A stretch of DNA of 64,000 bases from Hemiscyllium ocellatum (GCF_020745735.1 NW_026869102.1:56367-120366); one strand, 5' to 3'; shown: positions 1-40,100, numbered from the stretch's first letter. Made by a program: numbers and translations. Notes: generated from the letters alone by a model not told the origin.

Positions 1-149
1 CAGAGTACATCCAAAAGGCACAACTACTTGCAGATACCAACATCTACCCAAAGAGAGAGTCTGACCCCACCCCACAGCTCACCAATAGGATAAACACACT
101 GAGGAATCTACAAAAAAACGGACAGATAACCAGGTCTGACCTACAAAGA

Positions 150-900
150 ATGAAACCGGAAAGGAACACCACCCCCAGATTCTATGGACTACCTAAAGTA
201 CACAAACCAGACATCCCACTCAGACCCATAGTATCACTACCAGGGACACCATCACACAAACTGGCTAAAGAGCTACAGCAGAAACTGAAACACCTGATCA
301 GCAGATCCAAACAATCTATACAATCAACAGGAATTCTTGGACATCAGAAATATACACAGACAAGGAAGAAACCATGGTCTCATTCGATGTAATGGCACTG
401 TTCACCTCTATCGACAAAACCCTAGCCAGAGAAACAATATCCAACCTGCAGGACATACAGAACAGACAACAGGACGTTGAACCTATTAACAAAGACGGCA
501 TACTTAAACTACTGGACCTGTGCCTCACAACACACTTCACATTCAACAACCAGATATACGAACAAATCAACAGAACACCCATGGGCTCACCGATCTCTGG
601 ACTCACAGCAGAAGCAGTAATGCAAAGGTTAGAACAAACAGTCTTACTGCAAATACAACCCAAACTCTGGGTCAGATATGTGGGTGACACCTTTGTAATC
701 ATTAAAAACAGAAATAGAGAACACACACCGGATCATCAACGCCACCCTCACAGGAATCTGATTCACGAGAGAGGAAGAAAAGGACAAACAGCTCCCATTC
801 CTAGACGTGATGGTACAGAGAACACCGAATGGAGAATTCACTACAAAGGTATACAGGAAAGCCACACACACAGACTAAGTCCTGAACTATGAAAGCAACC
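150..900 (+). mobile_element. Penelope-like element (PLE) reverse-transcriptase fragment, degenerate with frameshifts
   Basis: ORFs 150-392 and 374-892 translate to RFYGLPKVHKPDIPLRPIVS, FDVMALFTSI, MGSPISGL and LWVRYVGDTFVI. I recall these as conserved motifs of Penelope-like element reverse transcriptases (GLPKIHK-type motif 1, the YVDD-equivalent box). The reading frame breaks between the two ORFs. Confidence 0.5.
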
Positions 901-1099
901 ACCCCAACCCACACAAACAAAATTGCATCAGGACACTATTCAAAAGGGCCACAACATGCTGCAGCACACCAGAACTACAAAAAGAGGAACACAAGGTATT
1001 CACCAAAAACAGATACTCGCACAATTTCATCAACAGATGCCTAAGGGAGAGACAACGGAACGAGGACATGCCGCAACCCAAGTTGAAAGGGTTCTAAAA

Positions 1100-1340
1100 A
1101 GATTTGAAAGATATAAAGGGACCTAAGGGGCAACTGTTTCACCCAGAGGGTGATGCATGTATGGAATGAGCTGCCAGAGGAAGTGGAGGAGGCTGGTACG
1201 ATTGGAACATTTAAAAGGCATCTGGATGGGTATATGAATAGGAAGGGTTTGAGGCAAATGGGACAAGATTAGGTTAGTCTATTTGGTCAGGATGGACTGA
1301 AGGGTCTGTTTCCGTGCTGTACATCTCTGACTCTAAGTAG
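1100..1340 (+). mobile_element. 3' end of an L2/CR1-like LINE (ORF2 C-terminus plus 3' UTR tail)
   Basis: Translation gives KGPKGQLFHPEGDACMEWAARGSGGGWYDWNI...EGFEANGTRLG, followed by the conserved tail ggtctgtttccgtgctgtacatctctgactctaa. The same tail recurs at 3100-3260, 7360-7445, 11600-11870, 22480-22745 and 32950-33140. Confidence 0.6.
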
Positions 1341-1419
1341 GGATATTACTAGTAATCAAAACCCTGAGGGGCTCTTGTTATAATGTGATGGTGCCTTGGG
1401 TGTGTGGGGGGGGGGGGGA

Positions 1420-2770
1420 AAAACACGTCACAGCTGGAATTCAGTATGTGAATTCAGTGAAACCGATCCTATCCCATGTCCTGAATGGACAGAATGCCAG
1501 TGTCTTTGCCTATGGCCCTACGGGAGCAGGTGGGTGAGTGACTGTCCACTGTCCTGCCTCTTTCCTTAGTGACCAGCCCCCTCAGAGCCTACAGCCTTAA
1601 AACCTGTCCTTTAACATTTAGACTAAAATGTCATGTTGCATTGTCAAACACACTTGCTGCACACCAGAAAATAGACAGGCAGGGAGGTTAAGGTCATGAA
1701 GGACATCAGTGAATCTGTGTCAACAGAACACAGTGATAACATTCACAGCTGTTCCTTTGTGAAATTAATAACTGTTTGATTCTGGCCTTGAAACAAAACT
1801 ATCAATTAACTTCTCTCCCCAATTATTGTCCTTCACTGTTGTCTGTCTAGTTAAGAATGCGCAGGGTTTTTGTAAACCTTCTTGTATAAAGGAAGACAGT
1901 TTGGGACCGTTCAGCACAGTACCCCGTCAGGGTTGTAGAAGAGCTGATCTCCCCACTAGAGACCACGCACCAAGACTTGGTGATTCGAGGGGACCAAGAC
2001 AAGAACATCTCCGTCCCCGACCTGACACAGCAGCACATCACCAGCTTCGTGGAGTTTGAGCAGTTCTTTCTGCCAGCCACACAGACAGACCACAGCCTGC
2101 ACCAAGTTGAATTGTCGGTCCAGTCGCAGCCACTCTGTGCTCCTGATTAAGGTCCAGCTAAGACGGGGCAGCCCATTGCTGTCGGGTCCTGTATTCTGGT
2201 TAGCCCGTTCCCCGGGGTTTCCACCCACGGGTGAATCCATTAACAGCGCCGTTGCCAGGCTTCCTCTCAAACCTGCGCCCGTAGACCCTCGGCTCACCGC
2301 AGGGCTGGAAGTGACCGCTGTTCCTCACCCTGCCATCTCCCGCCTGCAGCCTCCCGGGTGTTGCCTGGTGGTAGTATCCACCCTCAGGGCCTGGGAGCCT
2401 CCCCAGGGGCCGGGAGGAGCTGCCTTCACTTCCCAGAGCCCGGCCCGCGGGCCGATAGTATCCACTGTCCCCTCCGCCTCCACCACCGCCGTCTTAACGC
2501 CGGACAGTAGTTTGTACCAACGCCATTGGCTGAGCCCAGGCTCCTGTGTTCATCCACCTCACGATTGACCGAGTTCTCCATGTCCCTCTTCAGCACCGTA
2601 TCTGTTACACAGCCCCAGACCTACAGGCAGGGAGACAGACAGACAGACAACACCTGGGCATTGACACCAGAGAGACAGGCCACTGAAGGCAGCTACCATC
2701 ATACTTCCCTCCATCAGTCAGAGCATCAATTCTCGGAGGTGGGACATCCTGCTGGTCGGGTATAACAGGC
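1420..2770 (+). pseudogene. Mosaic, internally deleted duplicate of the downstream KIF22/satellite locus. It comprises an exon-2 copy, the 5' part of intron 2, an exon-4 copy, and the left flank of the satellite with one monomer.
   Basis: 1427-1830 is near-identical to 12717-13234 (including the [16 protein letters not shown] exon). 1953-2160 is near-identical to 14082-14290 (LETTHQDL...[17 protein letters not shown]). 2185-2770 matches 36648-37230. Junctions occur at short microhomologies (gatct; tgt). The copy ends with a single 30-bp satellite-type unit, gggacatcctgctggtcgggtataacaggc, at 2741-2770. Confidence 0.7.
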
Positions 2771-3090
2771 AGGGGTGTGGGCTGGGGGGGGGAACGAGGG
2801 GAAGAGCACGGGGGGAGGGGAGTGGGAGGGAAGAGAGAACAGTGCTGGGGCGGGAGGGAAAGAGGGGAGACAGCAGAGGAGTGGAGGGGGGAAAGGGGGG
2901 AGGGTAGGGGAGTGGAGGGGGGAGAAAGGAGGGAGGGGACAGTGCAGGTGGGAGTGAAGGGACAGTGGGGTGCAAACGATTGGGGAGGGGGGGTTTAAGG
3001 GAAAGAGAGGACCGTGGGGGTGGGGGGCGGAAGGGAAGAGAGTTTGTGAGATGTGGTACACTCACTTCCCCCTCCCTCCCTTCTGGAGGG
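2770..3090. repeat. G-rich purine low-complexity tract (GGGGA/GGAG motifs)
   Basis: Runs of gggg interspersed with a/ag over about 320 bp. The Pro-rich minus-strand ORFs and Gly/Glu-rich plus-strand ORFs here are composition artefacts. Confidence 0.7.
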
Positions 3091-3099
3091 AGTGGTGGA

Positions 3100-3600
3100 G
3101 GCTGGGACGACTGCAACATTTAAGGGGCGTTTGGGTGGGTATAGGAATAGGAAGGGTTTGGAGGGATAGAGGCCGGGTGCTGGCAGGTGGGAATGGATTG
3201 GGTTGGGATAACTGGGTCAGCACGGACAGGTTGGACCGAAGGGTCTGTTTCCGTGCTGTACATCTCTATGACTCTAGAGGTACAGGTTCATGGTGGGAAG
3301 GGGAAAGGTTCACAAGGATGTTAGAGGGTCTGAGCTGAAGGGAAGAGGCTGAGGGATGACCCTATAGAGGTTAATAGGGTCATGGATAAGGTGAAGGGTC
3401 AAGGTATTATCCCTCAGGGGGTGGTGAGGGAGGACAAAACTAGAGGGTCACAGGTTAAGGGTGAGAGGGGAAAGGTTCACAAGGATGTTGGAGGGTTTGA
3501 GCTGAAGGGGGGAGGCTGAGGGATAACCTTATAGAGGTTTATAGGGTCATGGGGGGGTCAGTGGGTAAGAACCAGAGGGTCAAAGGTCAAACATTTACAA
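3100..3600 (+). mobile_element. LINE 3'-end fragments (L2/CR1-like), partially tandemly duplicated
   Basis: The tail motif ggtcagcacggacaggttggaccgaagggtctgtttccgtgctgtacatctctatgactcta is present. A repeated roughly 120-bp unit contains aaggttcacaaggatgttrgagggtytgagctgaagggraggctgagggatraccytatagaggtttatagggtcatgg, which corresponds to the RGDLIEVYKIMRGxD region of ORF2. Confidence 0.5.
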
Positions 3601-3649
3601 AGGAACAACTTTTTCACGCGGAGAAGGTGCAAAGAGCTGCCCGAGGAAG

Positions 3650-4335
3650 CGATACAATAAATAACACCAGGAAAAGGCATAGTTTCCGGCCGGTTTTTAA
3701 CCTGTTTGCTGCTATTTTAAACACAACGAGCCTCCTCCCGCCTCCCAACCGCCGCCCGATTTAAATCTGATCAAAGCCCCGCCCTCCTCCCGGCCCGAGC
3801 GCCAGCGCCTCGCCTTCCATTGGCTACCCTCCGGGAGGTGGGCGGGGGTGATTGGTTGCGCGCGCGGGGCATTACCGACGTTGATACGGCAAGAGCAGTG
3901 ACTGGCAACGGGTTTATCCAATCCGATGGGGGAGAAGGGGTAGCCAATGGGAAGCGAGGTTAGGGCCGGGAGTGCGGGTGTTGGGGGGGGGTGAGAGTTG
4001 GAGGCGGCGGGGCCTCAGAGGCCGGACACGCGCGGAGTGCCCAATGGCCGCTGGGCCACGTGATCCGCGGTGAGGCATCCGATTGACGGGCGGCCGGACC
4101 AACCAGAGGCAGGTACTGGGTAAAGGGGCGTTCCTGAGCTGAGCGGCCAATGAGAGCGGTGTGGGGATGCGGCGGAGGACCAATAGGACGAGGCGCTCGC
4201 GCTCGGGGGGGGCGGGGCTTTGGTCAGATTTAAATCGGGCGGCGGTTGGGAGGCGGGAGGAGGCTCGTTGTGTTTAAAATGGCAGCAAACAGGTAAAAAC
4301 CGGCCTCTTACCTGGTGTTATTTATAGTAATCTGA
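3650..4335. promoter_or_regulatory. CpG-island-like core rich in CCAAT boxes, enclosed by about 125-bp inverted repeats. Either a candidate bidirectional NF-Y-type promoter or a TIR-bearing non-autonomous element.
   Basis: Left arm 3650-3775 and right arm 4195-4335 are about 90% reverse-complementary. Each arm carries atttaaat and tttaaa(a). The core 3780-4190 is CpG-dense and has at least 7 CCAAT/ATTGG boxes (3819, 3852, 3918, 3944, 4041, 4147, 4179) and one CACGTG at 4057. The right arm contains ATG (4279) GCAGCAAACAG followed by the donor-like gtaaaa at 4293. Confidence 0.45.
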
Positions 4336-6240
4336 GGTCACTGTACACTACACCCATTATGGTGTCACCATCCAACTATATCCCCTACATTCACATCCAA
4401 ATCATGTATATAAATGACAAATTAGTGGACCCAGCACCGATCCTTGTGGCGCTCCACTGGGCACAGGCCTCCAGTCTGAACAACAACTCTCCACCACCAC
4501 CCTCTGCCTTTCCCTACAGCTCAAACCCTGGCAACATCCATCTTTCCAATAGGAAGGAGATCAGAACTGCATGCAATATTCCAACAGTGGCCTAACCAAT
4601 GTCCTGTCCAGCCACAACATGACCCTCCCAACTCCTATACTTAACACTCTGCCCTACAAAGGAAAGCATACCAAACACCTTCTTCACTATCCTATCCACT
4701 TGGGACCCCACTTTCAGGGAGCTATGAACCTGCACTGTTGTTCTACAACACTCTCGGACCTTACCATTAAGCGTATAGGTCCTGCTAAGATTGGCTTTCC
4801 CCAAAATGCAGCACCTCAAGTTAAACTCCATCTGCCACTCCTCAGCCCACTGGCCCAGCTGATCAAGATCCCATTGTAATCTGAGGTAACCTACTTCACT
4901 GTCCACTACACCTCCAATTATGGTGTCACCATCCAACTATACCTCCTACGTTCACATCCAAATCATTTATATAAATGCCGAAAAGTAGTGGACCCAGCAC
5001 CGATCCTTGTGGTGCTCCACTGGGCACAGGACTCCAGTCTGAACAACAACCCTCCACCGCCACCCTCTGTCTTTCCCTACAGCTCAAACCCTGGCAACAT
5101 CCATCTTTCCAATAGGAAGGAGATCAGAACTGCATGCAATATTCCAACAGTGGCCTAACCAATGTCCTGTCCAGCCACAACATGACCCTCCCAACTCCTA
5201 TACTTAACACTCTGCCCTACAAAGGAAAGCATACCAAACACCTTCTTCACTATCCTATCCACTTGGGACCCCACTTTCAAGGAGCTATGAACCTGCACTG
5301 TTGTTCTACAACACTCTCGGACCCTACCATTAAGCGTATAGGTCCTGCTAAGATTTGCTTTCCCCAAAATGCAGCACCTCACGTTTACCCAAGTTAAACT
5401 CCATCTGCCACTCCTCAGCCCATTGGCCCAGCTGATCAAGATCCCATTGTAATCTGAGGTAACCTACTTCACTGTCCACTACACCTCCAATTATGGTGTC
5501 ACCATCCAACTATACCTCCTACGTTCACATCCAAATCATTGATATAAATGCCGAAAAGTAGTGGACCCAGCACCGATCCTTGTGGCACTCCACTGGGCAC
5601 AGGCCTCCAGTCTGAAAAACATCTCTCCACCGCCACCCTCTGTCTTTCCCTACAGCTCAAACCCTGCCAACATCCATCTTTCCAATAGGAAGGAGATCAG
5701 AACTGCATGCAATATTCCAACAGTGGCCTAACCAATGTCCTGTCCAGCCACAACATGACCCTCCCAACTCCTATACTTAACACTCTGCCCTACAAAGGAA
5801 AGCATACCAAACACCTTCTTCACTATCCTATCCACTTGGGACCCCACTTTCAAGGAGCTATGAACCTGCACTGTTGTTCTACAACACTCTCAGACCTTAC
5901 CATTAAGCGTATAGGTCCTGCTAAGATTGGCTTTCCCCAAAATGCAGCACCTCACGTTTACCCAAGTTAAACTCCATCTGCCACTCCTCAGCCCATTGGC
6001 CCAGCTGATCAAGATCCCATTGTAATCTGAGGTAACCTACTTCACTGTCCACTACACCTCCAATTATGGTGTCACCATCCAACTATACCTCCTACATTCA
6101 CATCCAAATCATTTATATAAATGCCGAAAAGTAGTGGACCCAGCACCGATCCTTGTGACACTCCACTGGGCACAGGCCTCCAGTCTGAAAAACAACTCTC
6201 CACCACCACCCTCTGTCTTCTCCCTTCAAGCCTGTTCTGG
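4320..6240 (-). mobile_element. Tandem array of about 3.3 copies of a 573-bp internal segment of an L2/CR1-like LINE reverse-transcriptase region
   Basis: Minus-strand ORFs 4592-4936 and 5155-5439 translate to DDTIIGGVVDSEVGYLRLQWDLDQLGQWAEEWQMEFN...RIVKKVFGMLSFVGQSVKYRSWEGHVVAGQDIG, which is LINE reverse-transcriptase sequence. Identical plus-strand ORFs start at 4571, 5134 and 5707, giving a period of 563-573 bp. Confidence 0.7.
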
Positions 6241-7030
6241 ATCCAAATGGCTAGTTCTCCCTGTATTCCATGAGATCTAACCTTGCTAACCAGTCTCCCA
6301 TGGGGAACCTTGGGAAACACCTTACTGAAGGCCATATAGATCACGTCCACTGCTCTGCCCTCCTTCGGGACCAACAGGCCTGGGTTCAAATCCCACTTGT
6401 CCCAGAAACTTTTATTAGCGCCTCTGAACAAGCGAATTACCAAACATTGAACCAAATACTAAAATGTACAAGCAAAAGTAAGTAAGAGCATGTTAAGGTC
6501 AAAATGTTAGTGGATGAGCCCCAGCCAGAAGCCAGCTCTTAAATACAACTTACACTCGATCAACTCTGGAGCTATTCCGGCATACCTTTCAAACAAACAT
6601 CACTTCCAGGCCGACACTCTCTGGACGGAGGTGAAGGGAGGAGTATGCTGGCTTGCAACGCAGAGTGATACCAACAGCATGTCCCAATCTCTCTCCACAG
6701 GAACATTTTCCCAAGCCTCCACCACCACCCTCTGTCTTCTACCTTCGAACCAGTTCTGTATCCAAATGGCTAGTTCTCCCTGTATTCCATGAGATCTAAC
6801 CTTGCTAATCAGTCTTCTATGGGGATCCTTGTCGAACGCCTTACTGGAGTCCATATAGATCACATCTACTGCTCTGCCATCATCAGTCTTCTTTGTTGCT
6901 TCTTCAAAAAACTCAATCAAGTTTGTGAGACAGGATTTCCCACGCACAAAGCCATGCTGACTATCCCAAATCAGTCCTTGCCTTTCCAAAGACATGTACA
7001 TCCTGTCCCTCCTCATTCTCTCTAATTTTG
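6240..7030 (-). mobile_element. Two LINE reverse-transcriptase fragments ([17 protein letters not shown]...RRQRVVVE), each interrupted by a roughly 330-bp insert with a tRNA-like segment
   Basis: Minus-strand ORFs 6072-6455 and 6600-7016 contain [40 protein letters not shown]. The insert (antisense 6240-6600) includes ggttcaaatcccacttgtcccag, a tRNA T-arm-like sequence. The inverted counterpart lies at 10230-10860. Confidence 0.65.
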
Positions 7031-9019: not shown

Positions 9020-9201
9020 TGGAGATCACAGCTGCAAATGTGTTGCTGGTCAAAGCACAGCAGGCCAGGCAGCATCTCAGGAATAGAGAATTCGACGTTT
9101 CGAGCAAGGGCTTATGCTCGAAACGTCGAATTCTCTATTCCTGAGATGCTGCCTGGCCTGCTGTGCTTTGACCAGCAACACATTTGCAGCTGTGATCTCC
9201 A
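9020..9201. repeat. Perfect 86-bp-arm palindrome (foldback/hairpin repeat) with a 10-nt loop
   Basis: 9020-9105 is the exact reverse complement of 9116-9201 (tggagatcacagctgcaaatgtgttgctggtcaaagcacagcaggccaggcagcatctcaggaatagagaattcgacgtttcgagc, loop aagggcttat). Degenerate members of the same family lie at 31375-31560 and 16335-16400. Confidence 0.85.
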
Positions 9202-9862: not shown

Positions 9863-10065
9863 ATGTCTAACCTACCTCCTGCGGATGTGCAGCCCTTTAG
9901 GAAGATGGCCAGTTCCCATCACCGCCGGGTGAAGGTGGTGGTCCGGCTCCGACCCTACCAGTCCACAGAGGATGAGCAGCAGGAGGGCCCCTGTGTGCGT
10001 GGCCTAGGCACCCGCTCGCTGGAACTTGTGAACTGGAGGAGCCGGACAGAATCCATGCAGTACAA
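9863..10065 (+). CDS. KIF22: KIF22 (chromokinesin Kid) coding exon 1. ATG at 9863. GTGAGT donor at 10066.
   Basis: Translates to MSNLPPADVQPFRKMASSHHRRVKVVVRLRPYQSTEDEQQEGPCVRGLGTRSLELVNWRSRTESMQY(K/N). Human KIF22 has VRVAVRLRPFVDG...[27 protein letters not shown]. Confidence 0.8.
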
Positions 10066-10209: not shown

Positions 10210-11870
10210 CCTCACCATCCTGAGATGGCCAAAGGATACAGTGGGATAGAGATAAATAGATAGATGGATAGGGTGGAGACTTGGCAGAGAAGTGGCAGAT
10301 GGAATTTAATCCTGAAACATCTGGTCACTCTGGGCTGGGCTGTGGGGGCTTGGGAAAACGTTCCTGTGGAGAGAGATTGGGACATGCTGTTGGTATCGCT
10401 CAGCGTTGCAAGCCAGCAGACTCCTCCCTTCACCTCCATCCAGAGAGTGTTGGCCTGGAAGTGATGTTTGTTTGAAAGGTATGCCGGAATAGCTCCAGAG
10501 TTGATCAAGAGTAAGTTGTATTTAAGAGCTGGCTTCTGGCTGGGGCTCATCAGTTCCCCATCCACTAACATTTTGACCTTAACATGCTCTTACTTACATT
10601 TGCTTGTACATTTTAGTATTTGGTTCAATGTTTGGTAATTTGCTTGCTCAGAGGCGCTAATAAAGGTTTCTGGGACAAGTGGGATTTGAACCCAGGCCTG
10701 TTGGTCCCGAAGGAGGGCAGAGCAGTGGACGTGATCTATATGGACTTCAGTAAGGTGTTTCCCAAGGTTCCCCATGGGAGACTGGTTAGCAAGGTTAGAT
10801 CTCATGGAATACAGGGAGAACTAGCCATTTGGATCCAGAACAGGCTTGAAGGGAGAAGACAGAGGGTGGTGGTGGAGAGATGTTTTTCAGACTGGAGGCC
10901 TGTGCCCAGTGGAGTGCCACAAGGATCGGTGCTGGGTCCACTACTTTTCGGCATTTATATAAATGATTTGGATGTGAACATAGGAGGTATAGTTGGATGG
11001 TGACACCATAATTGGAGGTGTAGTGGACAGTGAAGTAGGTTACCTCAGATTACAATGGGATCTTGATCAGCTGTGCCAATGGGCTGAGGAGTGGCAGATG
11101 GAGTTTAACTTGGGTAAACGTGAGGTGCTGCATTTTGGGGAAAGCAAATCTTAGCAGGACCTATACGCTTAATGGTAAGGTCCAAGAGTGTTGTAGAACA
11201 AAAGTGCAGGTTCATAGCTCCTTGAAAGTGGGGTCCCAAGTGGATAGGATAGTGAAGAAGGTGTTTGGTATGCTTTCCTTTGTAGGGCAGAGTGTTAAGT
11301 ATAGGAGTTGGGAGGGTCATGTTGTGGCTGGACAGGACATTGGTTAGGCCACTGTTGGAATATTGCATGCAGTTCTGATCTCCTTCCTATTGGAAAGATG
11401 GATGTTGGCAGGGTTTGAGCTGTAGGGAAAGGCTGAATAGGTGGGGCTGTTTCCCCTGGAGCGTCGGAGACTGAAGGGGTGACTTTATGGAGGTTTATAA
11501 AATCACGATGGGTGTGGATAGGGGCAGTAGGCCAAGTCTTTTCCCTGGGGTGGGGGAGTCCAGAAGTAGAGGTCAGCGGTTTAGGGTGAGAGGGGAAAGA
11601 TATAAAAGGGATCTAAGGGGCAACTGTTTCAGCCAGAGGATGATGCATGTATGGAATGAGCTGCCAGAGGAAGTGGTGGAGGCTGGTACGATTGGAGCAT
11701 TTTAAAAGGCATCTGGATGGGTATATGAATAGGAAGGGTTTGAGGCAAATGGGCCTAGTGCTGACAAATGGGACGAGATTAGGTTAGGCTATTTGTTCGG
11801 GATGGAGCGAAGGGTCTGTTTCCGTGCTGTCCATCTCTCTGACTCTAAGTAGGGATATTATTAGTCATCA
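10210..11870 (+). mobile_element. L2/CR1-like LINE, 3' two-thirds of ORF2 with frameshifts, ending in the conserved tail
   Basis: ORF 10620-11003 contains [21 protein letters not shown]...[16 protein letters not shown]...[24 protein letters not shown] 11063-11347 has RT downstream motifs. 11487-11705 reads GDRGSRPSLFPGVGESRSRGQRFRVRGERYKRDLRGNCFSQRMMHVWNELPEEVVEAGTIGAF. Tail ggtctgtttccgtgctgtccatctctctgactctaa at about 11810-11850. Confidence 0.75.
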
Positions 11871-12685
11871 GAACCCTGAAGGGCTCTTGTTATAGTGTGA
11901 TGGTGCCTTGGGTGTGGTTGGAGGGGAAGGGTTTCTCAGTTTCATTTTTCTAATATTTGGGGAAAGAAAACACTGTCTTCCTTTTGGAATCTAACTACAT
12001 ATCTGCAGGTTGTGGGAGGGTGCACCCTCTCTTCATATTCTTAAGGAATCACTTCAGCGGCAGATACCTGCTCTTTGAGCATCCGGTGTGGAGGAAGCAA
12101 GGCTTTGTAGGTCTTCCTCATGTAGGTAAGTAGCAAGCTCACCTCTTCACGTTTATGTCTACAGCTGGGTGTCCACGTGATGACAACGGAGGTGTTTGTG
12201 AGCACCAGTCACATTTCACTTGTCTGATTTAACTTGCTGAGCTGGACACTTGTGGCAAATTACATTTGGAAACGGTGATGGCTTTTTGCAAAAGGACGTT
12301 ATAAAAGTGTTCATGATTACTGTCCTGAATTTGTACTGAACCTTTCTGAAGTTCTTCAGACCAGCTGCGCGCTGTTTTCCCCAGCCAACGTTATTTTAAT
12401 TCTATTTCTGTCGTTAGTCTTTGGTTTTGGTTCATGTTGCAATCACCCCAATGGGCAGTTGTTGCTTTTAGTTTGGGTTATTTAAAGAAATGGAGTTTGG
12501 GTTCCTCTGCACTCCTGAGTTTGCCTGTGGACAGGGAAAGGTGGAAATTTGGCATTTGTGCTAAACCCTCGATTTACAATGGTAAATCACACAGACGTTT
12601 ACTGCCTAATTCAACATTAATGTATCAGTCTGTGAAACAGCTGGACCCTTCAGTGTACTAAACCTCACCTCCTCCTGTCTCTCAG

Positions 12686-12815
12686 CTTCGATGCTTTTTA
12701 TGGTGATGACACCTCACAGCTGGAATTCAGTATGTGAATTCAGTGAAACCGATCCTATCCCATGTCCTGAATGGACAGAATGCCAGTGTCTTTGCCTATG
12801 GCCCTACGGGAGCAG
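12686..12815 (+). CDS. KIF22: KIF22 coding exon 2 (FDAFYG...[17 protein letters not shown]-loop N-terminal half). Contains an internal 1-nt frame discontinuity.
   Basis: Acceptor ctctcag at 12679-12685. Frame 1 reads [11 protein letters not shown]. The conserved continuation [32 protein letters not shown] is in frame 3. Donor GTGAGT at 12816. Human has [44 protein letters not shown]. Confidence 0.8.
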
Positions 12816-13483
12816 GTGAGTGAGTGAGTGAGTGACTGTCCACTGTCCTGCCTCTTTCCTTAGTGACCAGCCCCCTCACAGAGCCGACAGCCTTAAAACC
12901 TGTCCTTTAACATTTAGACTAAAATGTCATGTTGCATTGTCAAACACACTTGCTGCACACCAGAAAATAGACAGGCAGGGAGGTTAAGGTCATGAAGGAC
13001 ATCAGTGAATCTGTGTCAACAGGACACAGCGATAGCATTCACGGCTGTTCCTTTGGGAAATTAATAACTGTTTGATTCTGGCCTTGAAACAAAACTCTCT
13101 CAATTAACTTCTCTCCCCAATTATTGTCCTTCACTGTTACCTGTCTAGTTAAGAATGTGCAGGGTTTTTGTGTAAAGGAAGTCAGTTAGTGACCGTTCAG
13201 CACAGTACCCTGTCAGGGCTCTTGAAGAGCTGATCTCCTACTCTCCTGGGTTATTACAACCTAGTTAGTTTAGCTTATAGGTATCAGTGTTATGTTAAAC
13301 TGTTACATCAAGGGGTTAACCTAAACTGTCTGTTTGAGGTATTTTTATTCCAGACTACCAAAGGGTACGATCTCTGGGACAAATCGAGAGGCTTACAGGT
13401 TGAGTCCACGAGGGATTCCCTGGGCCATCTCCGATCTGTCCATATTCCCCTCTCCTGTCTTTATTTGTTTTTCTCATTGATAG

Positions 13484-13644
13484 GTAAGACCCACACCATG
13501 CTGGGCAGTCCCAAACAGCCCGGAGTGGTCCCTCGTTCTCTGCTGGACATATTTCGCATGGTACAGGAGCAGAGTGACCAGCTGTGTGGACCTTCCTGGA
13601 GATTTAATGTGACCATGTCCTACTTGGAGATCTACCAGGAGAAG
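13484..13644 (+). CDS. KIF22: KIF22 coding exon 3
   Basis: Acceptor tgatag. Translates to (G)[53 protein letters not shown]. Donor GTGAGT at 13645. Human has [20 protein letters not shown]...[13 protein letters not shown]. Confidence 0.9.
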
Positions 13645-13936
13645 GTGAGTCTTCTTTGTTGTCCTGGTTAGGTTGGGAAGAGGGACATTAATTCAGAGAT
13701 TCAGGTTCAAATCCTACCTCAGGCACTGGGGGATTCCACTTAAATGAGTCAGACAAATGACAAATCCAAGAAATAAAACAATAATGGTGACCACAAAACT
13801 GGTACCAATTGTCATAAAGAGCCAGCGTCCCTGGGAGCACAGTGTGCCATGCTTTCTCCTGCATCCTGCCCGTGTGGTGAACAGCTCCAGTTTATGGATG
13901 TGTGGTCCTTCTTCTATCTCTGTGGTGCTCAATTCC

Positions 13937-14072: not shown

Positions 14073-14282
14073 GTGTTGGATCTACTGGAGACCACGCACC
14101 AAGACTTGGCGATTCGAGAGGACCAAGACAAGAACATCTTCGTCCCCGACCTGACACAGCAGCGCATCACCAGCTTCGTGGAGTTTGAGCAGTTCTTTCT
14201 GCCAGCCACACAAAGACGGACCACAGCCAGCACCAAGTTGAATTGTCGGTCCAGTCGCAGCCACTCTGTGCTCCTGATTAAG
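14073..14282 (+). CDS. KIF22: KIF22 coding exon 4 (switch I)
   Basis: Translates to [70 protein letters not shown]. Human has [70 protein letters not shown]. Acceptor ctctcag. Donor gtccag at 14283. Confidence 0.9.
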
Positions 14283-14659
14283 GTCCAGCTATGTCGGGTC
14301 CCTTTGTTGCTCTTTCAATTATCTTTCTGGTGCTCACACCCTTGTGGTCTCTCTCTCTCTCGGCACACTTTCTTTCTCTTTCATACTGTAAATGCTGTAT
14401 CAATAAGTGCTACATTAAGGGCTTTAACCACATCGCTCAGGCCTGAGGCTGAAAGATCACACTCACTCTCTCCAGTTGTGCACAGTGTGTAACTCCACTT
14501 CCCAACCACCCTCCACCACCTTGCTGTCTTCCCTCAGTGCTCTGTGTCTCTCTCTGTCTCTCCCCGTGCCCCTGTCCCTCCCTCTGCCAGAATGAATGTT
14601 GCTTGGTTAGGACGCTCAGCCACCACTCTTGCTCTGATCGAATACTGGTTCTGTTGCAG

Positions 14660-26164: not shown

Positions 26165-28360
26165 AACAGTCAAACAGGGTGGTACACTGGCTCAGGGGTT
26201 AGCTCTGCGACCTCCCAGCACGAGGGATCCAGGTTCAATTCCAGGGGAATTGGCCCCACTACATGACCCACCGTGTTCGGGGTTGGGGGGAATTGGCCCC
26301 ACTACATGACCCACCGTGTTCGGGGTTGGGGGGAATTGGTCCCACTACATGACCCACCGTGTTTGGGGTTGGGGGGAATTGGCCCCACTACATGACCCAC
26401 CGTGTTCGGGGTTGGGGGGAATTGGCCCCACTACATGACCCACCGTGTTCGGGGTTGGGGGGGATTGGCCCCACTACATGACCCACCGTGTTCGGGGTTG
26501 GGGGGGATTGGCCCCACTACATGACCCACCGTGTTTGGGGTTGGGGGAATTGGTCCCACTACATGACCCACCGTGTTTGGGGTTGGGGGGGATTGGCCCC
26601 ACTACATGACCCACCATGTTCGGGGTTGGGGGGAATTGGCCCCACTACATGACCCACCGTGTTTGGGGTTGGGGGAATTGGTCCCACTACATGACCCACC
26701 GTGTTTGGGGTTGGGGGGAATTGGCCCTGCTACATGACCCACCGTGTTTGGGGTTGGGGGAATTGGCCCCACTACATGACCCACCGTGTTCGGGGTTGGG
26801 GGGAATTGGCCCCACTACATGACCCACCGGGTTGGGGGGAATTGGCCCCGCTACATGACCCACCGTGTTCGGGGTTGGGGGGAATTGGCCCTGCTACATG
26901 ACCCACCGTGTTCGGGGTTGGGGGGGATTGGCCCCACTACATGACCCACCGTGTTCGGGGTTGGGGGGGATTGGCCCCACTACATGACCCACCGTGTTTG
27001 GGGTTGGGGGAATTGGTCCCACTACATGACCCACCGTGTTTGGGGTTGGGGGGGATTGGCCCCACTACATGACCCACCATGTTCGGGGTTGGGGGGAATT
27101 GGCCCCACTACATGACCCACCGTGTTTGGGGTTGGGGGAATTGGTCCCACTACATGACCCACCGTGTTTGGGGTTGGGGGGAATTGGCCCTGCTACATGA
27201 CCCACCGTGTTTGGGGTTGGGGGAATTGGCCCCACTACATGACCCACCGTGTTCGGGGTTGGGGGGAATTGGCCCCACTACATGACCCACCGGGTTGGGG
27301 GGAATTGGCCCCGCTACATGACCCACCGTGTTCGGGGTTGGGGGAATTGGCCCCACTACATGACCCACTGTGTTCGGGGTTGGGGGGAATTGGCCCTGCT
27401 ACATGACCCACTGTGTTTGGGGTTGGGGGGAATTGGCCCCACTACATGACCCACCGTGTTTGGGGTTGGGGGAATTGGCCCTGCTACATGACCCACCGTG
27501 TTCGGGGTTGGGGGGAATTGGCCCCGCTACATGACCCACCATGTTCGGGGTTGGGGGGAATTGGCCCTGCTACATGACCCACCGTGTTTGGGGTTGGGGG
27601 GAATTGGCCCCACTACATGACCCACCGTGTTTGGGGTTGGGGGAATTGGCCCCACTACATGACCCACCGTGTTTGGGGTTGGGGGGAATTGGCCCCACTA
27701 CATGACCCACCGTGTTTGGGGTTGGGGGAATTGGCCCCACTACATGACCCACCGTGTTCGGGGTTGGGGGGGATTGGTCCCGCTACATGACCCACCATGT
27801 TTGGGGTTGGGGGGAATTGGCCCTGCTACATGACCCACCATGTTCGGGGTTGGGGGGAATTGGTCCCACTACATGACCCACCGTGTTTGGGGTTGGGGGG
27901 AATTGGCCCCACTACATGACCCACTGTGTTTGGGATTGGGGGGAATTGGCCCCACTACATGACCCACCGTGTTCGGGGTTGGGGGGAATTGGCCCCACTA
28001 CATGACCCACCGTGTTCGGGGTTGGGGGGAATTGGCCCCGCTACATGACCCACCGTGTTTGGGGTTGGGGGGAATTGGCCCTGCTACATGACCCACCGTG
28101 TTCGGGGTTGGGGGGAATTGGTCCCACTACATGACCCACCGTGTTTGGGGTTGGGGGGAATTGGCCCTGCTACATGACCCACCGTGTTTGGGGTTGGGGG
28201 GAATTGGCCCCGCTACATGACCCACCGTGTTTGGGGTTGGGGGGAATTGGCCCCACTACATGACCCACCGTGTTCGGGGTTGGGGGGAATTGGTCCCACT
28301 ACATGACCCACCGTGTTCGGGGTTGGGGGGATTGGCCCTGCTACATGACCCACAGCATGG
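26165..28360 (+). repeat. 43-bp minisatellite of about 50 copies, seeded by a truncated tRNA-derived SINE head (26165-26250)
   Basis: Unit ccactacatgacccaccgtgttcggggttggggggaattggcc, with variants t/c and g/t, tiles 26250-28355 continuously. It is preceded by the tRNA-like head ggtggtacactggctcaggggttagctctgcgacctcccagcacgagggatccaggttcaattccagg. The unit resembles the SINE internal segment gtgaattggccatgctaaattgcccgtagtgttaggtaagggg. Confidence 0.85.
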
Positions 28361-34399: not shown

Positions 34400-36060
34400 C
34401 TGTCCTCACGAGGTCAGGGAGCAGGGACAGTGTCTGGGGGAAGAGCCCCCTCCCTCAGACAGGGAGCAGGGACAGTGTCCGGGGTGGGGTTAACCCCCTC
34501 CCTCAGACAGGGAGCAGGGACAGTGTCCGGGGTGGGGTTAACGCCCTCCCTCAGACAGGGAGCAGGGACAGTGTCCGGGGGAAGAGCCCCCTCCCTCAGA
34601 CAGGGAGCAGGGACAGTGTCCGGGGTGGGGTTAACCCCCTCCCTCAGACGGGGAGCAGGGACAGTGTCTGGGGGGGAAGAGCCCCCTCCCTCAGACAGGG
34701 AGCAGGGACAGTGTCCGGGGTGGGGTTAACCCCCTCCCTCAGACAGGGAGCAGGGACAGTGTCTGGGGGGGGGAAGAACCCCTTCCCTCAGACAGGGAGC
34801 AGGGACAGTGTCTGGGGGGGGGGAAGAACCCCTTCCCTCAGACAGGGAGCAGGGACAGTGTCTGGGGGGGGAAGAACCCCTTCCCTCAGACAGGGAGCAG
34901 GGACAGTGTCCGGGGTGGGGTTAACCCCCTCCCTCAGACAGGGAGCAGGGAATGTGTCCAGGGTGGGGTTAACCCCCTCCCTCAGACAGGGAGCAGGGAA
35001 TGTGTCCAGGGTGGGGTTAACCCCCTCCCTCAGACAGGGAGCAGGGACAGTGTCCGGGGTGGGGTTAACCCCCTCCCTCAGACAGGGAGCAGGGACAGTG
35101 TCCGGGGGAAGAGCCCCCTCCCTCAGACAGGGAGCAGGGACTGTGTCCGGGGTGGGGTTAACCCCCTCCTTCAGACAGGGAGCAGGGACTGTGTCCGGGG
35201 TGGGGTTAAAGCCCTCCCTCAGACAGGGAGCAGGGACAGTGTCCGGGGGAAGAGCCCCCTCCCTCAGACAGGGAGCAGGGACAGTGTCCGGGGTGGGGTT
35301 AACCCCCTCCCTCAGACAGGGAGCAGGGACTGTGTCCGGGGGAAGAGCCCCCTCCCTCAGACAGGGAGCAGGGACTGTGTCCGGGGTGGGGTTAACCCCC
35401 TCCCTCAGACAGGGAGCAGGGACGGTGTCTGGGGGAGGAGCCCCCTCCCTCAGACAGGGAGCAGGGAATGTGTCCGGGGTGGGGTTAACCCCCTCCCTCA
35501 GACAGGGAGCAGGGACAGTGTCCGGGGTGGTGTTAACCCCCTCCCTCAGACAGGGAGCAGGGAATGTGTCCGGGGTGGGGTTAACCCCCTCCCTCAGACA
35601 GGGAGCAGGGAATGTGTCCGGGGTGGGGTTAACCCCCTCCCTCAGACAGGGAGCAGGGAATGTGTCCGGGGTGGGGTTAACCCCCTCCCTCAGACAGGGA
35701 GCAGGGAATGTGTCCGGGGTGGGGTTAACCCCCTCCCTCAGACAGGGAGCAGGGAATGTGTCCAGGGTGGGGTTAACCCCCTCCCTCAGACAGGGAGCAG
35801 GGACTGTGTCCGGGGTGGGGTTAACCTCCTCCCTCAGACAGGGAGCAAGGACAGTGTCCGGGGGAGGAGCCCCCTCCCTCAGACAGGGAGCAGGGACTGT
35901 GTCCGGGGTGGGGTTAACCCCCTCCCTCAGACAGGGAGCAAGGACTGTGTCCGGGGTGGGGTTAGCCCCCTCCCTCAGACAGGGAGCAAGGACAGTGTCC
36001 GGGGGAGGAGCCCCCTCCCTCAGACAGGGAGCAGGGACAGTGTCTGGGGTGGGGTGGGGT
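34400..36060. repeat. Minisatellite of about 35 copies with 45- and 48-bp units
   Basis: Units acagggagcagggacagtgtccgggggaagagccccctccctcag (45 bp) and acagggagcaggga(c/a)(a/t)gtgtccggggtggggttaaccccctccctcag (48 bp). The 48-bp type contains the perfect palindrome GGGGTTAACCCC. The ORFs 34288-36087 (+) and 34788-36116 (-) are artefacts of the 3n period. Confidence 0.9.
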
Positions 36061-37190
36061 AAACCCCTTCCCGCTCTCTCTCTGTAACCGACCTGTAGAG
36101 AAATAACGTACGACATCCTGCAGCTCTGGGGGGTCAGTGTCTGTGTACTGCTGCCAGTCAGTGTTCAGTCTGTGTACGGGCGGAGGTGGGGGTGGTGGGG
36201 AGGTTGAGGAGGTGGAGGTGGGGTCTGGACTGGGTGCTCCCAGTCGCCCTGGATCTGCCATCTCCTGCCCACAGTTCAGTCCAGAACGTTGTTCCCCTCG
36301 CGCCCCATCTCCGGCGCCCATTCCCGGCTCAGTGATGAAAGACAGGCCCCACTGGTTGTGGAAGATGGCACCCAGTCCCTGGCCCAGCCTGGGGCCTGAT
36401 TCGTGGTCATCGCTGGCTCCTCTGGTCCCGGTGGGCTCTGCGCTGAGATTCTCCTTCACCTTACTGGCGTAACTGATCCGGGGCAGGATTCGGGCGGTGC
36501 TGCTCCCCACTGGGAATGTGGCTGGGGGTTTGAACAACATCCAGCCGTGGGGCTGCTCTCCCTCTTCCTCCTCCTCCCCAGCGCCCCCGCTCCCCTCTGC
36601 CTCTTCTAGGGACTCAGCCCCTTCGCCACCGTCTCGTGTTCTGGTTAGCCGGTTCCCTGGGGGCCGGGGTTTCCACCTGCGGGTGAATCCATTAACGGCG
36701 CCGTCGCCAGGCTTCCTCTCGAACCTGCGCCCGTAGACCCTCGGCTCACCGCGGGGCTGGAAGTGACCACTGTTCCTCACCCTACCGTCTCCCGCCTGCA
36801 GCCTCCCGGGCGTCGCCTGGCGGTAGTATCCACCCTCAGGACCTGGGAGCCTCCCCAGGGACCGGAAGGAGCTGCCTTCACTTCCCAGAGCCCGGCCCAC
36901 GGGCCGATAGTATCCACTGCCTCCTCCTCCTCCTCCTCCTCCACCACCGCCGTCTAACGCCCGACGGTACTTTGTACCAACGCCATTGGCTGAGCCCAGG
37001 CTCCTGTGTTCATCCACCTCGCGATTGACCGAGTTCTCCATGTCCCTCTTCAGCACCGTATCTGTGACACAGCCCCAGACCTACAGGCAGGGAGACAGAC
37101 AGACAGACAACACCTGGGCATTGACACCAGAGAGACAGGCCACTGAAGGCAGCTACCATCATACTTCCCTTCATCAGGCAGAGCATGGGG
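36060..37190. other. GC-rich, CpG-island-like unique segment bordering the satellite. It includes (GGTGG)n/(CCT)n low-complexity stretches and a CCAAT box. A second copy is present at 2185-2740.
   Basis: High CpG density (cgcg, ccgg, gcgc throughout). ccattggct at about 36983. The 364-aa minus-strand ORF (35962-37056) is not frame-conserved relative to the second copy: indels of 7 and 1 bp. Confidence 0.5.
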
Positions 37191-40100
37191 GAGAGGGGGT
37201 GGGACGTCCTGCTGGTCGGGAATGGGAGGTGCGACGCCCTGCTGGTTGGGTATAGGAGATGGGACTTCCTGCTGGTCGATTATAGGAGATGGGACTTCCT
37301 GCTGGTCGATTATAGGAGATGGGACTTCCTGCTGGTCTATTATAGGAGATGGGACGTCCCGCTGGTCGGGTATAGCAGATGGGACGTCCCGCTGGTCCGG
37401 TATAGCAGATGGGACGTCCCACTGGTCCGGTATAGGAGATGGGGTGTCCCACTGGTCCGGTATAGGAGATGGGACGCCCCGCTGGTCCGGTATAGCAGAT
37501 GGACGTCCCACTGGTCTATTATAGGAGATGGGACGTCCCGGTGGTCAGGTATAGGAGATTGGACGTCCTGCTGGTCGGGTATAGGGGATGGGACGCCCTG
37601 CTGGTCGGGTATAGGAGATGGGACGTCCCGCTGGTCGGGTATAGGGGATGGGACGTCCCGCTGGTCGGGTATAGGGGATGGGACGTCCCGCTGGTCGGGT
37701 ATAGGGGATGGGACGTCCCGCTGGTCTATTATAGGAGATGGGAAGTCCCGCTGGTCGGGTATAGGAGATGGGACGTCCCGCTGGTCGGGTATAGGAGATG
37801 GGACGTCCCGCTGGTCGGGTATAGCAGAAGGGACGTCCCGCTGGTCCGGTATAGCAGAAGGGACGTCCCGCTGGTCCGGTATAGCAGAAGGGACGTCCTG
37901 CTGGTCGGGTATAACAGGCGGGACATCCCGGTGGTCGGGTATAGCAGATGGGACGTCCCGGTGGTCAGGTATAGCAGATGGGACGTCCCGCTGGTCTATT
38001 ATAGAAGATGGGACGTCCTGCTGGTCGGGTATAGCAGGCGGGACGTCCCGCTGGTCGGGTATAGGAGATGGGACGTCCCGGTGGTCGGGTATAGCAGATG
38101 GGACGTCCCGCTGGTCGGGTATAGGAGATGGGACGTCCCGCTGGTCCGGTATAGGAGATGGGACGTCCCGCTGGTCCGGTATAGCAGGAGGGACGTCCCG
38201 CTGGTCGGGTATAGGAGATGGGACGTCCCGCTGGTCGGGTATAGGAGGCGGGACGTCCCGCTGGTCGAGTATAGGAGATGGGACGTCCCACTGGTCGAGT
38301 ATAGGAAATGGGACGTCCCACTGGTCTATTATAGCAGATGGGACGCCCCGCTGGTCTATTATAGGAGGTGGGAACCCCTGCTGGTCGGGTATAGCAGGCG
38401 GGACGTCCCGCCGGTGCAGTATAGAAGATGGGACGCCCCGCTGGTCGGGTATAGGAGATGGGACGTCCCGCTGGTCGGGTATAGGGGATGGGACGTCCCG
38501 CTGGTCCGGTATAGGAGATGGGACGTCCCGCTGGTCCGGTATAGGGGATGGGACGTCCCGCTGGTCGGGTATAGGGGATGGGACGCCCCACTGGTCGGGT
38601 ATAGGAGATGGGACGTCCTGCTGGTCGGGTATAGCAGGCGGGACGTCCCGCTGGTCGGGTATAGGGGATGGGACGCCCCGCTGGTCCGGTATAGGGGATG
38701 GGACGTCCCGCTGGTCGGGTATAGGGGATGGGACGTCCCGCTGGTCCGGTATAGGGGATGGGACGTCCCGCTGGTCGGGTATAGGAGATGGGACGTCCTG
38801 CTGGTCCGGTATAGGGGATGGGACGTCCTGCTGGTCGGGTATAGCCGATGGGACGTCGTGCTGGTCCGGTATAGGAGATGGGACGTCCCGCTGGTCGGGT
38901 ATAGCCGATGGGACGTCGTGCTGGTCCGGTATAGGAGATGGGACGTCCCGCTGGTCGGGTATAGGAGATGGGACGTCCTGCTGGTCCGGTATAGCAGGCG
39001 GGACGCCCCGCTGGTCCGGTATAGGGGATGGGACGTCCCGCTGGTCCGGTATAGGGGATGGGATGTCCTGCTGGTCTATTATAGCAGATGGGACGTCCCG
39101 CTGGTCGGGTATAGCAGGCGGGACGTCCCGCTGGTCGGGTATAGGGGATGGGACGTCCCGCTGGTCGGGTATAGGGGATGGGACGTCCCGCTGGGCCGGT
39201 GTAGGGGATGGGACGTCCCGCTGGTCTATTATAGGAGATTGGACGTCCCGCTGGTCGGGTATAGGGGATGGGACGTCCTGCTGGTCTATTATAGGAGATT
39301 GGACGCTCCGCTGGTCGGGAATAGGAGATGGGACGTCCCACTGGTCTATTATAGGAGATGGGACGTCCCGCTGGTCGGGTATAGCAGATGGGACGTCCCG
39401 CTGGTTGGGTATAAGAGATGGGACGTCCCGCTGGTCTATTATAGGGGATGGGACGTCCTGCTGGTCCGGTATAGGAGATGGGACGTCCTGCTGGTCGGGT
39501 ATAGGGGATGGGACGTCCCGCTGGTCGGGTATAGGGGATGGGACGTCCCGCTGGTCGGGTATAGGGGATGGGATGCCCCGCTGGTCGGGTATAGGGGATG
39601 GGACGTCCTGCTGGTCGGGTATAGGGGATGGGACGTCCCGCTGGTCCGGTATAGGAGATGGGACGTCCTGCTGGTCGGGTATAGGGGATGGGACGTCCCG
39701 CTGGTCCGGTATAGGGGATGGGACGCCCCGCTGGTCCGGTATAGGGGATGGGACGTCCCGCTGGTCGGGTATAGGGGATGGGACGTCCCGCTGGTCGGGT
39801 ATAGGGGATGGGACGCCCCGCTGGTCGGGTATAGGAGATGGGCCGTCCTGCTGGTCGGGTATAGCAGGCGGGACGTCCCGCTGGTCGGGTATAGGAGATG
39901 GGCCGTCCTGCTGGTCGGGTATAGCAGGCGGGACGTCCCGCTGGTCGGGTATAGGGGATGGGACGCCCCGCTGGTCCGGTATAGGGGATGGGACGTCCTG
40001 CTGGTCTATTATAGCAGATGGGACGCCGCGCTGGTCGGGTATAGCAGGCGGGACGCCCCGCTGGTCGGGTATAGCAGGCGGGACGCCCCGCTGGTCGGGT

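Follow-up and report, generated by a model that had tools for sequence, protein, structure and literature searches.

Non-processed pseudogene fragments are a familiar component of segmental duplications. Pseudogenes can also pass sequence to genes by ectopic conversion, as in the human pairs CYP21A1P/CYP21A2 and GBAP1/GBA, and microhomologies with extra bases at joins are typical of the template-switch junctions attributed to microhomology-mediated break-induced replication (MMBIR) and fork stalling and template switching (FoSTeS). We analyzed 64,000 nucleotides of an unplaced scaffold of the epaulette shark, Hemiscyllium ocellatum (GCF_020745735.1, NW_026869102.1:56367-120366; hereafter the window, numbered from its first base), in which positions 1106-2770 hold a patchwork of sequences that we call the mosaic. 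The mosaic is an ordinary decayed pseudogene remnant of a well-known kind, without evident function. It is probably a non-processed, DNA-level duplicate of a segment of at least 25.6 kb that comprised part of the kinesin gene KIF22, a NUFIP2-like gene and the edge of a satellite array, with three internal stretches missing, an origin in the Hemiscyllium lineage and a later history of gene conversion. A frameshift shared with a neighboring full-length KIF22 copy, together with the putative conversion tracts, is its one mildly interesting lead.

Self-alignment of the window with blastn resolved 1106-2770 into four pieces, all on the same strand as, and collinear with, a locus 10-35 kb downstream (the main locus), and found no further copies of the mosaic blocks in the 64-kb window. 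Three blocks aligned in plus/plus orientation: 1423-1952 with 12709-13238 (91.9% identity, E = 0), 1955-2167 with 14084-14298 (94.9%, E = 6e-94) and 2191-2763 with 36636-37223 (90.8%, E = 0). These collinear parts had been reported in a preliminary description of the window, whose limits the alignments bear out within ~12 bp. A fourth block, added here and numbered 0, matched 1106-1412 to 11595-11926 (reaching 11931) at 87% identity including indels, and places the visible start of the copy at 1106. The same description had proposed a duplicated segment of roughly 24.5 kb with two large internal losses; a DNA-level duplicate with large losses stands, but the segment measures at least 25.6 kb and the gaps number three, lacking ~0.77, 0.84 and 22.3 kb and leaving a copy of 1.66 kb.

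The comparison loci were the NUFIP2-like contigs of Chiloscyllium plagiosum (L001) and C. punctatum (L002), the KIF22 locus of C. plagiosum (L004) and two Stegostoma loci (L003 and L005). According to the blastn and C. plagiosum alignments, block 0 (1106-1412, plus strand) copies part of intron 1 of the KIF22 gene of the main locus (source 11595-11931, plus strand). It consists of the 3' end of a long interspersed nuclear element (LINE) followed by ~80 bp of unique sequence, which is also present at the orthologous place in C. plagiosum (L004 11575-11915), and is thus more than a shared transposon. Block 1 (source 12705-13242, plus strand, from the 20th nucleotide of exon 2 into intron 2) comprises a 5'-truncated fragment of coding exon 2 at 1423-1529 (source exon 12686-12815) and, by alignment, the first ~420 bp of intron 2 at 1530-1950 (source 12816-13236), both on the plus strand. 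Block 2 (source 14079-14302, plus strand) comprises a fragment of coding exon 4 without its first 6-11 nt at 1955-2151 (source exon 14073-14282) and the first 38 nt of intron 4 at 2152-2189, again on the plus strand; it can be followed to 2189 with C. plagiosum as the alignment guide. Within it, 19 nt at 2162-2180 represent ancestral intron 4 sequence. The corresponding nucleotides (AGACGGGGCAGCCCATTGC) are retained in C. plagiosum L004 and were lost from the main locus at 14291/14292.

Block 3 had been described, through its source at 36648-37230, as the left flank of the satellite. The source does adjoin the array, but it is in fact the first coding exon of the NUFIP2-like gene, on the minus strand, with its 5' flank and the first satellite unit (source 36631-37230, aligned plus to plus; ATG 37041-37039, first unit 37201-37230). 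In the mosaic, the 5' ~130 codons of this exon lie at 2190-2581 (minus strand, ATG 2581-2579), frameshifted by a 1-nt insertion near 2495, and are followed by the 5' flank up to the satellite boundary at 2582-2740 (minus strand), the boundary being of the ancestral, Chiloscyllium type. A lone 30-bp satellite unit, GGGACATCCTGCTGGTCGGGTATAACAGGC, closes the copy at 2741-2770 (plus strand). Divergence counted by substitutions only was alike across blocks 0-3 (18/307 ungapped columns, 20/518, 9/213 and 37/572; chi-square ~4.2, 3 degrees of freedom), which fits a single origin of the blocks.

The main locus carries a complete plus-strand set of KIF22 exons, starting with exon 1 at ~9863-10065, exon 2 at 12686-12815, exon 3 at ~13483-13647 and exon 4 at 14073-14282, and its last motor-domain and tail exons reach ~30 kb in the window. 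The first coding exon of the minus-strand open reading frame, 36090-37041, is 100% identical to the H. ocellatum protein 'FMR1-interacting protein NUFIP2-like' and has a Pfam NUFIP2 match. The two genes are ordered tail to tail, as in Stegostoma, whose assembly contains two such KIF22-NUFIP2-like loci, one chromosomal and one on an unplaced contig.

At the first of the three internal joins (1405-1423, plus strand), a run of T G13 A5, with G13A5 at 1406-1423, stands in place of ~773 bp of source sequence (11932-12704) and may partly derive from the source sequence TTGGAGGGGAAGGG. The second (1946-1954, plus strand) has GATCT followed by CCCC where ~0.84 kb including exon 3 (13483-13647) is gone. 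Its source sides read GATCTCCTACT at 13232-13242 and GATCTACT at 14079-14086, so that the GATCT noted earlier as a microhomology is indeed found on both (13232-13236 and 14079-14083). The join is not clean, however, as the copy reads GATCT-CCCC-ACTAGAG, and CTACT is likewise shared between the two sides. The third join (2186-2190, plus strand) marks the loss of ~22.3 kb, which takes out the KIF22 exons from the fifth onward along with the 3' portion of the NUFIP2-like gene. The trinucleotide tgt, previously named as the microhomology here, did not hold up: the shared motif is GTCC(C), with GTCCT in the copy, GTCCC at 14298-14302 and GTCTC at 36631-36635, where Chiloscyllium has GTCCC. At the second and third joins, the same short motif thus stands at both source breakpoints and one copy of it is kept; microhomology of at least 5 bp is thus seen at two of the three internal joins, while its chance at any one random join is ~0.4% by our own calculation.

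A retrocopy of a mis-spliced or read-through transcript of the KIF22 locus would account for the absence of exon 3 and most downstream sequence, a pattern superficially resembling splicing. Within exons, however, the joins are 23 nt (exon 2) and 6-11 nt (exon 4) from the exon edge, within introns they are ~420 nt (intron 2) and 20 nt (intron 4) deep, and none of the gap edges shows GT...AG. Exons 2 and 4 are cut internally, and the copy still has 420 nt of intron 2 and 38 nt of intron 4. The copy starts within a LINE in intron 1, and its last block represents the antisense strand of another gene together with the 5' flank of that gene. Neither a 3' poly(A) tract nor target-site duplications were found at the mosaic, which is followed by a G-rich tract and flanked by a truncated retroelement and unrelated sequence. 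As the joins fall inside exons and introns and not at splice sites, the event took place at the DNA level. We rejected an RNA intermediate on the grounds of the off-splice-site joins, the antisense last block and the missing poly(A), and a retrocopy is barely conceivable.

At the DNA level, the mosaic may have formed in two ways. In the course of events that we prefer, a segment of at least 25.6 kb, reaching from the LINE inside KIF22 intron 1 to about one unit into a 30-bp array that was already multi-unit, would have been duplicated; three gaps, two or more of which coincide with microhomologies, would then have cut the copy to 1.66 kb, as by microhomology-mediated end joining (MMEJ) or replication slippage, and ectopic gene conversion with the neighboring full-length copy would have followed. 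The other course is a single repair event, in which a break or stalled fork at 1105/2771 was mended by copying the locus 10-35 kb downstream with three forward template switches at microhomologies (serial replication slippage, FoSTeS/MMBIR or multi-invasion synthesis-dependent strand annealing), the fragment never having exceeded ~1.7 kb. Three internal joins and two outer ends amount to five breakpoints within 1.66 kb, the microhomologies of at least 5 bp at two joins and the few extra or ambiguous bases at all three would suit such template switches, and the sequences on either side of the mosaic have no homology to those that flank the source. The loss of 94% of a segment by just three large deletions, with the remainder still 92-99% identical, would also be unusual for slow decay. 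On the other hand, deletion from a contiguous copy would leave pieces that are strictly collinear and in one orientation, whereas segments joined by template switching are often inverted or reordered. The window and C. plagiosum frequently differ by kilobase-scale indels in this region, and large duplications are demonstrable here, as two full-length KIF22 genes exist. Taken together, the collinearity, the single orientation, the frequent kilobase indels and the other large duplicate favor deletion from a once-contiguous copy. We regard one-step formation as unlikely though deserving of weight, and lean modestly towards the deletions having occurred after the duplication, as the preliminary description had assumed, and not during it.

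A further alternative is that the joins are chimeras made by the assembler. The scaffold is one of ~1,900 minor scaffolds of an assembly built from PacBio continuous long reads (CLR) with Canu (PMC10587355), and the region is rich in satellites and minisatellites. The copy nevertheless differs from the main locus by 5-8% plus indels and could not have been built from main-locus reads, as it holds ancestral states that the main locus no longer has. The retained intron 4 nucleotides (19 nt) and a satellite boundary of the Chiloscyllium type identify it as an independent lineage and not a chimera of such reads. To make a chimera, the assembler would have needed several more full copies, all of them diverged, and would have had to take a single short piece from each in the right order; an assembly artefact is accordingly very improbable.

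The duplicate was dated against the related sharks. In a three-way alignment of blocks 0-2, unique substitutions numbered 24 in the copy, 20 in the main locus and 40 in C. plagiosum. With Stegostoma as the outgroup, nine derived sites in the coding parts were common to the copy and the main locus, compared with one common to the main locus and Chiloscyllium. By these polarised sites, the copy is sister to the main locus, and the duplication falls on the Hemiscyllium branch, later than the divergence from Chiloscyllium. The mosaic was absent from the 10 kb upstream of KIF22 in Stegostoma. An empty site was not definable in C. plagiosum, where window positions 1-4338 match only transposable elements. 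When the pedigree mutation rate (7e-10 per generation, PMC10587355) was applied, absolute ages came out implausibly old; we dropped this approach and used relative dating only.

The placement of the copy also bears on its terminal satellite unit. The preliminary description stated that the duplicate ends after about one unit, and 2741-2770 is a true monomer of the array, matching array unit 24 (at 37890) at 29 of 30 positions and differing at two positions from 13 units that belong to the ...GCAGGC variant type (~104 members); a resemblance to a unit tail is also seen in the ~15 nt that precede it (2726-2740). We considered whether the monomer is orthologous to unit 24, implying array collapse, and drew no conclusion, since ~1.2 such 29/30 matches are expected by chance among the 104 variant units. 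Two readings of the single unit had been offered: a pre-amplification proto-satellite state preserved in the copy, and a breakpoint at the array edge.

If the copy had been made before the 30-bp unit was amplified, it would be expected to have just the one unit that it shows. The copy's unit tail (TATAACAGGC) and boundary are nearer to the Chiloscyllium form than is the first unit of the main locus, so old variants are preserved, and the ~10 kb (L003) and ~4.7 kb (L005) of Stegostoma sequence searched at the matching side of the NUFIP2-like gene contained no 30-bp array, which makes the satellite relatively young and specific to Hemiscylliidae. The two Chiloscyllium contigs contradict this history: in both, the NUFIP2-like exon is followed by the same 5' flank and then by tandem 30-bp units at the same distance from the ATG, at least 7.7 of them in C. 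plagiosum and ~4 in C. punctatum, with each contig ending in the array. Given these arrays at the orthologous flank and a copy that arose after the split of the two genera, as the nine derived sites shared with the main locus against Chiloscyllium and Stegostoma (one for the alternative) indicate, the array is older than the copy. The lone monomer is a truncated array edge, not a pre-amplification relic, which settles the question of the single unit; a proto-satellite origin is highly improbable, and of the two earlier readings only the array-edge breakpoint survives. The 30-bp satellite can at the same time be dated to the stem of Hemiscylliidae, by its presence in Chiloscyllium and absence from the same place in Stegostoma.

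The boundary between flank and first unit has changed strongly at the main locus, with seven main-locus-specific changes in 24 columns (37176-37230); the mosaic retains the Chiloscyllium-like boundary (cctccgagaattgatgctctgac), and it is the stretch ~37176-37200 of the main locus that has diverged. The array itself (37185-64000, plus strand) starts ~150 bp 5' of the NUFIP2-like ATG, at ~37185, and runs off the window end with 893 units in the window. These comprise 159 distinct monomers, among which the ...GCAGGC variant (~104 units) is the type nearest to the Chiloscyllium unit. One frame is open for 2,239 codons (37185-43904), a purely mechanical consequence of a unit length that is a multiple of 3. 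We found no strong higher-order period in the array, with weak peaks only at lags of 112 and 80 units. The matching side in Stegostoma is instead occupied by 11 copies of a 55-bp minisatellite unit and by an extended poly-pyrimidine/poly-purine tract (L005 44716-45339 and 47154-48718; L003 7-5777).

The span 12717-37230 had been taken as the main locus, and it is the source-side copy; it is, however, itself a frameshifted KIF22 paralogue. All exons are present, with a +2 frameshift in exon 2 (the 'AG' at 12729-12730), and the gene corresponds to the NCBI model XP_060679273.1, 'LOW QUALITY PROTEIN: kinesin-like protein KIF22'. An intact KIF22 (XP_060679271/2) is located on the same 430,011-bp scaffold as the window. 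The proteins of the intact copy (KIF22-A) and the frameshifted one (KIF22-B) are 98.6% identical, and the protein comparison assigned five derived differences to the frameshifted and two to the intact form. The presence of this second near-full-length KIF22 on the 430-kb scaffold indicates that the region duplicates repeatedly.

The frameshift is a clustered change from GAGATC--T, as found in Chiloscyllium and Stegostoma, to GAATTCAGT (region 12723-12744 in the main locus and 1437-1458 in the copy), and the mosaic carries exactly the +2 frameshift of the main locus, with GAATTCAGT at 1437-1445. The new sequence is identical to a motif 13 nt downstream, which suggests that the frameshift arose as one templated mutation. 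Its presence at two loci makes a random sequencing error unlikely and explains, for annotators, the 'LOW QUALITY' model of KIF22. The frameshift is found in the mosaic and KIF22-B and not in KIF22-A, yet KIF22-A and KIF22-B, by protein identity alone, look younger than the mosaic.

The divergence between the mosaic and the main locus was heterogeneous within blocks. The first low-divergence tract, 1423-1723 (plus strand; source 12709-~13010), is a putative conversion tract that includes the frameshift and differs from the main locus by 1.6%, compared with 7% in the rest of the block (5/315 in 1423-~1723 and 15/215 in the remainder of block 1; max-chi-square permutation p = 0.006). The second, 2511-2714 (plus strand; source ~36964-37175), has 1.9% divergence against 8.4% in the rest of the block (4/208 in ~2511-2714 and 27/320 in the remainder of block 3; permutation p = 0.017), and remained distinct when the C. 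plagiosum rate was used as a control (Fisher test p = 0.004). Changes specific to C. plagiosum were evenly distributed over both tracts. The two tracts are 98-99% identical between mosaic and main locus, within blocks that are elsewhere 92-93% identical. The pattern suggests later ectopic gene conversion, in either direction, between the mosaic and the neighboring KIF22 copy over two tracts of ~200-300 bp, although polishing cross-talk during assembly may be an alternative source of near-identical tracts.

One further scenario is that the fragment acted as the conversion donor of the +2 frameshift (GAGATC--T to GAATTCAGT), transferring it to exon 2 of the neighboring full-length paralogue of KIF22, at a distance of 11 kb, and inactivating that duplicate gene. 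We hold this to be possible but on balance doubtful. If true, the survival of one young KIF22 copy over the other would have been determined by a pseudogene remnant of 1.7 kb. More broadly, the unplaced epaulette-shark scaffold emerges as a hotspot of repeated duplication, microhomology deletion and sequence exchange around KIF22.

Lacking coding capacity, the fragment is a dead non-processed pseudogene. All three coding pieces are frameshifted (+2 in exon 2, -2 in exon 4 and +1 in the NUFIP2-like exon), and both KIF22 exon pieces are cut short. The exon 4 piece has a 2-bp deletion near 2084 and 6-7 copy-specific substitutions. Neither the KIF22 kinesin motor nor the C-terminal HhH domains are present in an open frame in the mosaic, which contains only two truncated exon fragments. 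Non-coding source sequence is kept as well, in the form of pieces of introns 1, 2 and 4 and the NUFIP2-like 5' flank. In the coding parts, polarised with Stegostoma, lineage-specific changes numbered 21 in the copy and 7 in the main locus, corresponding to ~3 times faster evolution of the copy than of its source. Together with the exon 4 deletion and the NUFIP2-like insertion, this imbalance identifies the copy as the pseudogene.

Several observations weigh against a large duplication followed by deletions in the Hemiscyllium lineage. The first join shows no clear microhomology, and the second has 2-4 extra C. A single sequence does not reveal in which order the events took place, and one copying event with forward template jumps would give the same product. 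At its left edge (1105/1106), the copy meets a truncated retroelement that extends beyond the start of the window, and the estimate of at least 25.6 kb is therefore a lower bound. The assembly type, PacBio CLR with Canu (PMC10587355), is a concern for any reading of the joins. Outside the putative conversion tracts, the copy and the main locus differ by 7-8%, about as much as the main locus and C. plagiosum (~7%). With distances this equal, a date after the split rests on the polarised sites, and the duplication is not much younger than the split of the genera; the polarised sites are few (nine and one) and possibly inflated by gene conversion. The sequence upstream of KIF22 in C. plagiosum, in which the mosaic was likewise not found, has one 500-N gap.

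On its left, the mosaic adjoins a degenerate A-rich retroelement with reverse transcriptase (1-1105, plus strand; Pfam RVT_1, E = 1.9e-8), which is cut internally where the mosaic begins and extends off the window start. Its translation contains stop codons and frame changes, and it has no match elsewhere in the window. On the right, 2771-3085 (plus strand) is purine-rich unique sequence (54% G) and, as the preliminary description had it, unrelated to the satellite (z ~0 against shuffled controls). We considered it as decayed satellite and rejected this, as local alignment to three unit variants gave z from -1.2 to +0.4 against shuffles and there was no 30-bp periodicity; a possible half second unit (GCAGGGGTGTGGGCTGG) right of the monomer had no statistical support. 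As a homologue of the Stegostoma poly-pyrimidine tract beyond NUFIP2, the G-rich tract gave only low-complexity, opposite-strand matches, which allow no conclusion.

The wider region is repetitive. Upstream of KIF22 exon 1 (4338-6722), about four tandem copies of a ~565-bp unit were found, and downstream of it (10342-11436) an inverted copy, 96-98% identical, so that large inverted repeats enclose the exon. In C. plagiosum, there is one upstream unit of this type (L004 7262-7848) and an inverted partial copy (10958-11322). A near-perfect palindrome at 9020-9201 (182 bp, 96.7% self-complementary) lies ~660 bp upstream of the KIF22 start codon (9863). Two G-rich minisatellites follow, one in the KIF22 3' region (26244-28353, 43-bp unit, ~50 copies) and one in the NUFIP2-like intron beside the first coding exon (34415-36055, 48-bp unit, ~35 copies); C. 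plagiosum has 2.5 copies of a related 44-bp unit next to an assembly gap (L004 39913-40022). An Rfam search of 1-38000 found no RNA families.

In comparison with known systems, the mosaic most resembles the non-processed pseudogene fragments of segmental duplications. It shares with them a DNA-level copy that includes intron and intergenic sequence, a position near the source in the same orientation, truncations and frameshifts. It differs in fusing two tail-to-tail genes, KIF22 in sense and NUFIP2-like in antisense, with a satellite unit, and in having lost 94% of its length through three gaps. GATCT/CTACT and GTCCC flanking two gaps, with one copy kept and a few extra bases, are alike to products of microhomology-mediated deletion by MMEJ or replication slippage and to those of FoSTeS/MMBIR rearrangements. 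In contrast to such systems, none of the mosaic's segments is inverted or out of order, and it contains no insertion templated at another site. Single-copy satellite 'seed' loci offer a likeness in the lone unit beside a homologue of the array flank, and a difference in that the array here is older than the mosaic copy. With the conversions at CYP21A1P/CYP21A2 and GBAP1/GBA, the mosaic has in common short near-identical tracts in diverged paralogues and a disabling frameshift found in both the fragment and the neighboring full-length copy. Here, the putative conversion may have run in either direction, and the affected gene is redundant, since an intact KIF22 is present on the same scaffold.

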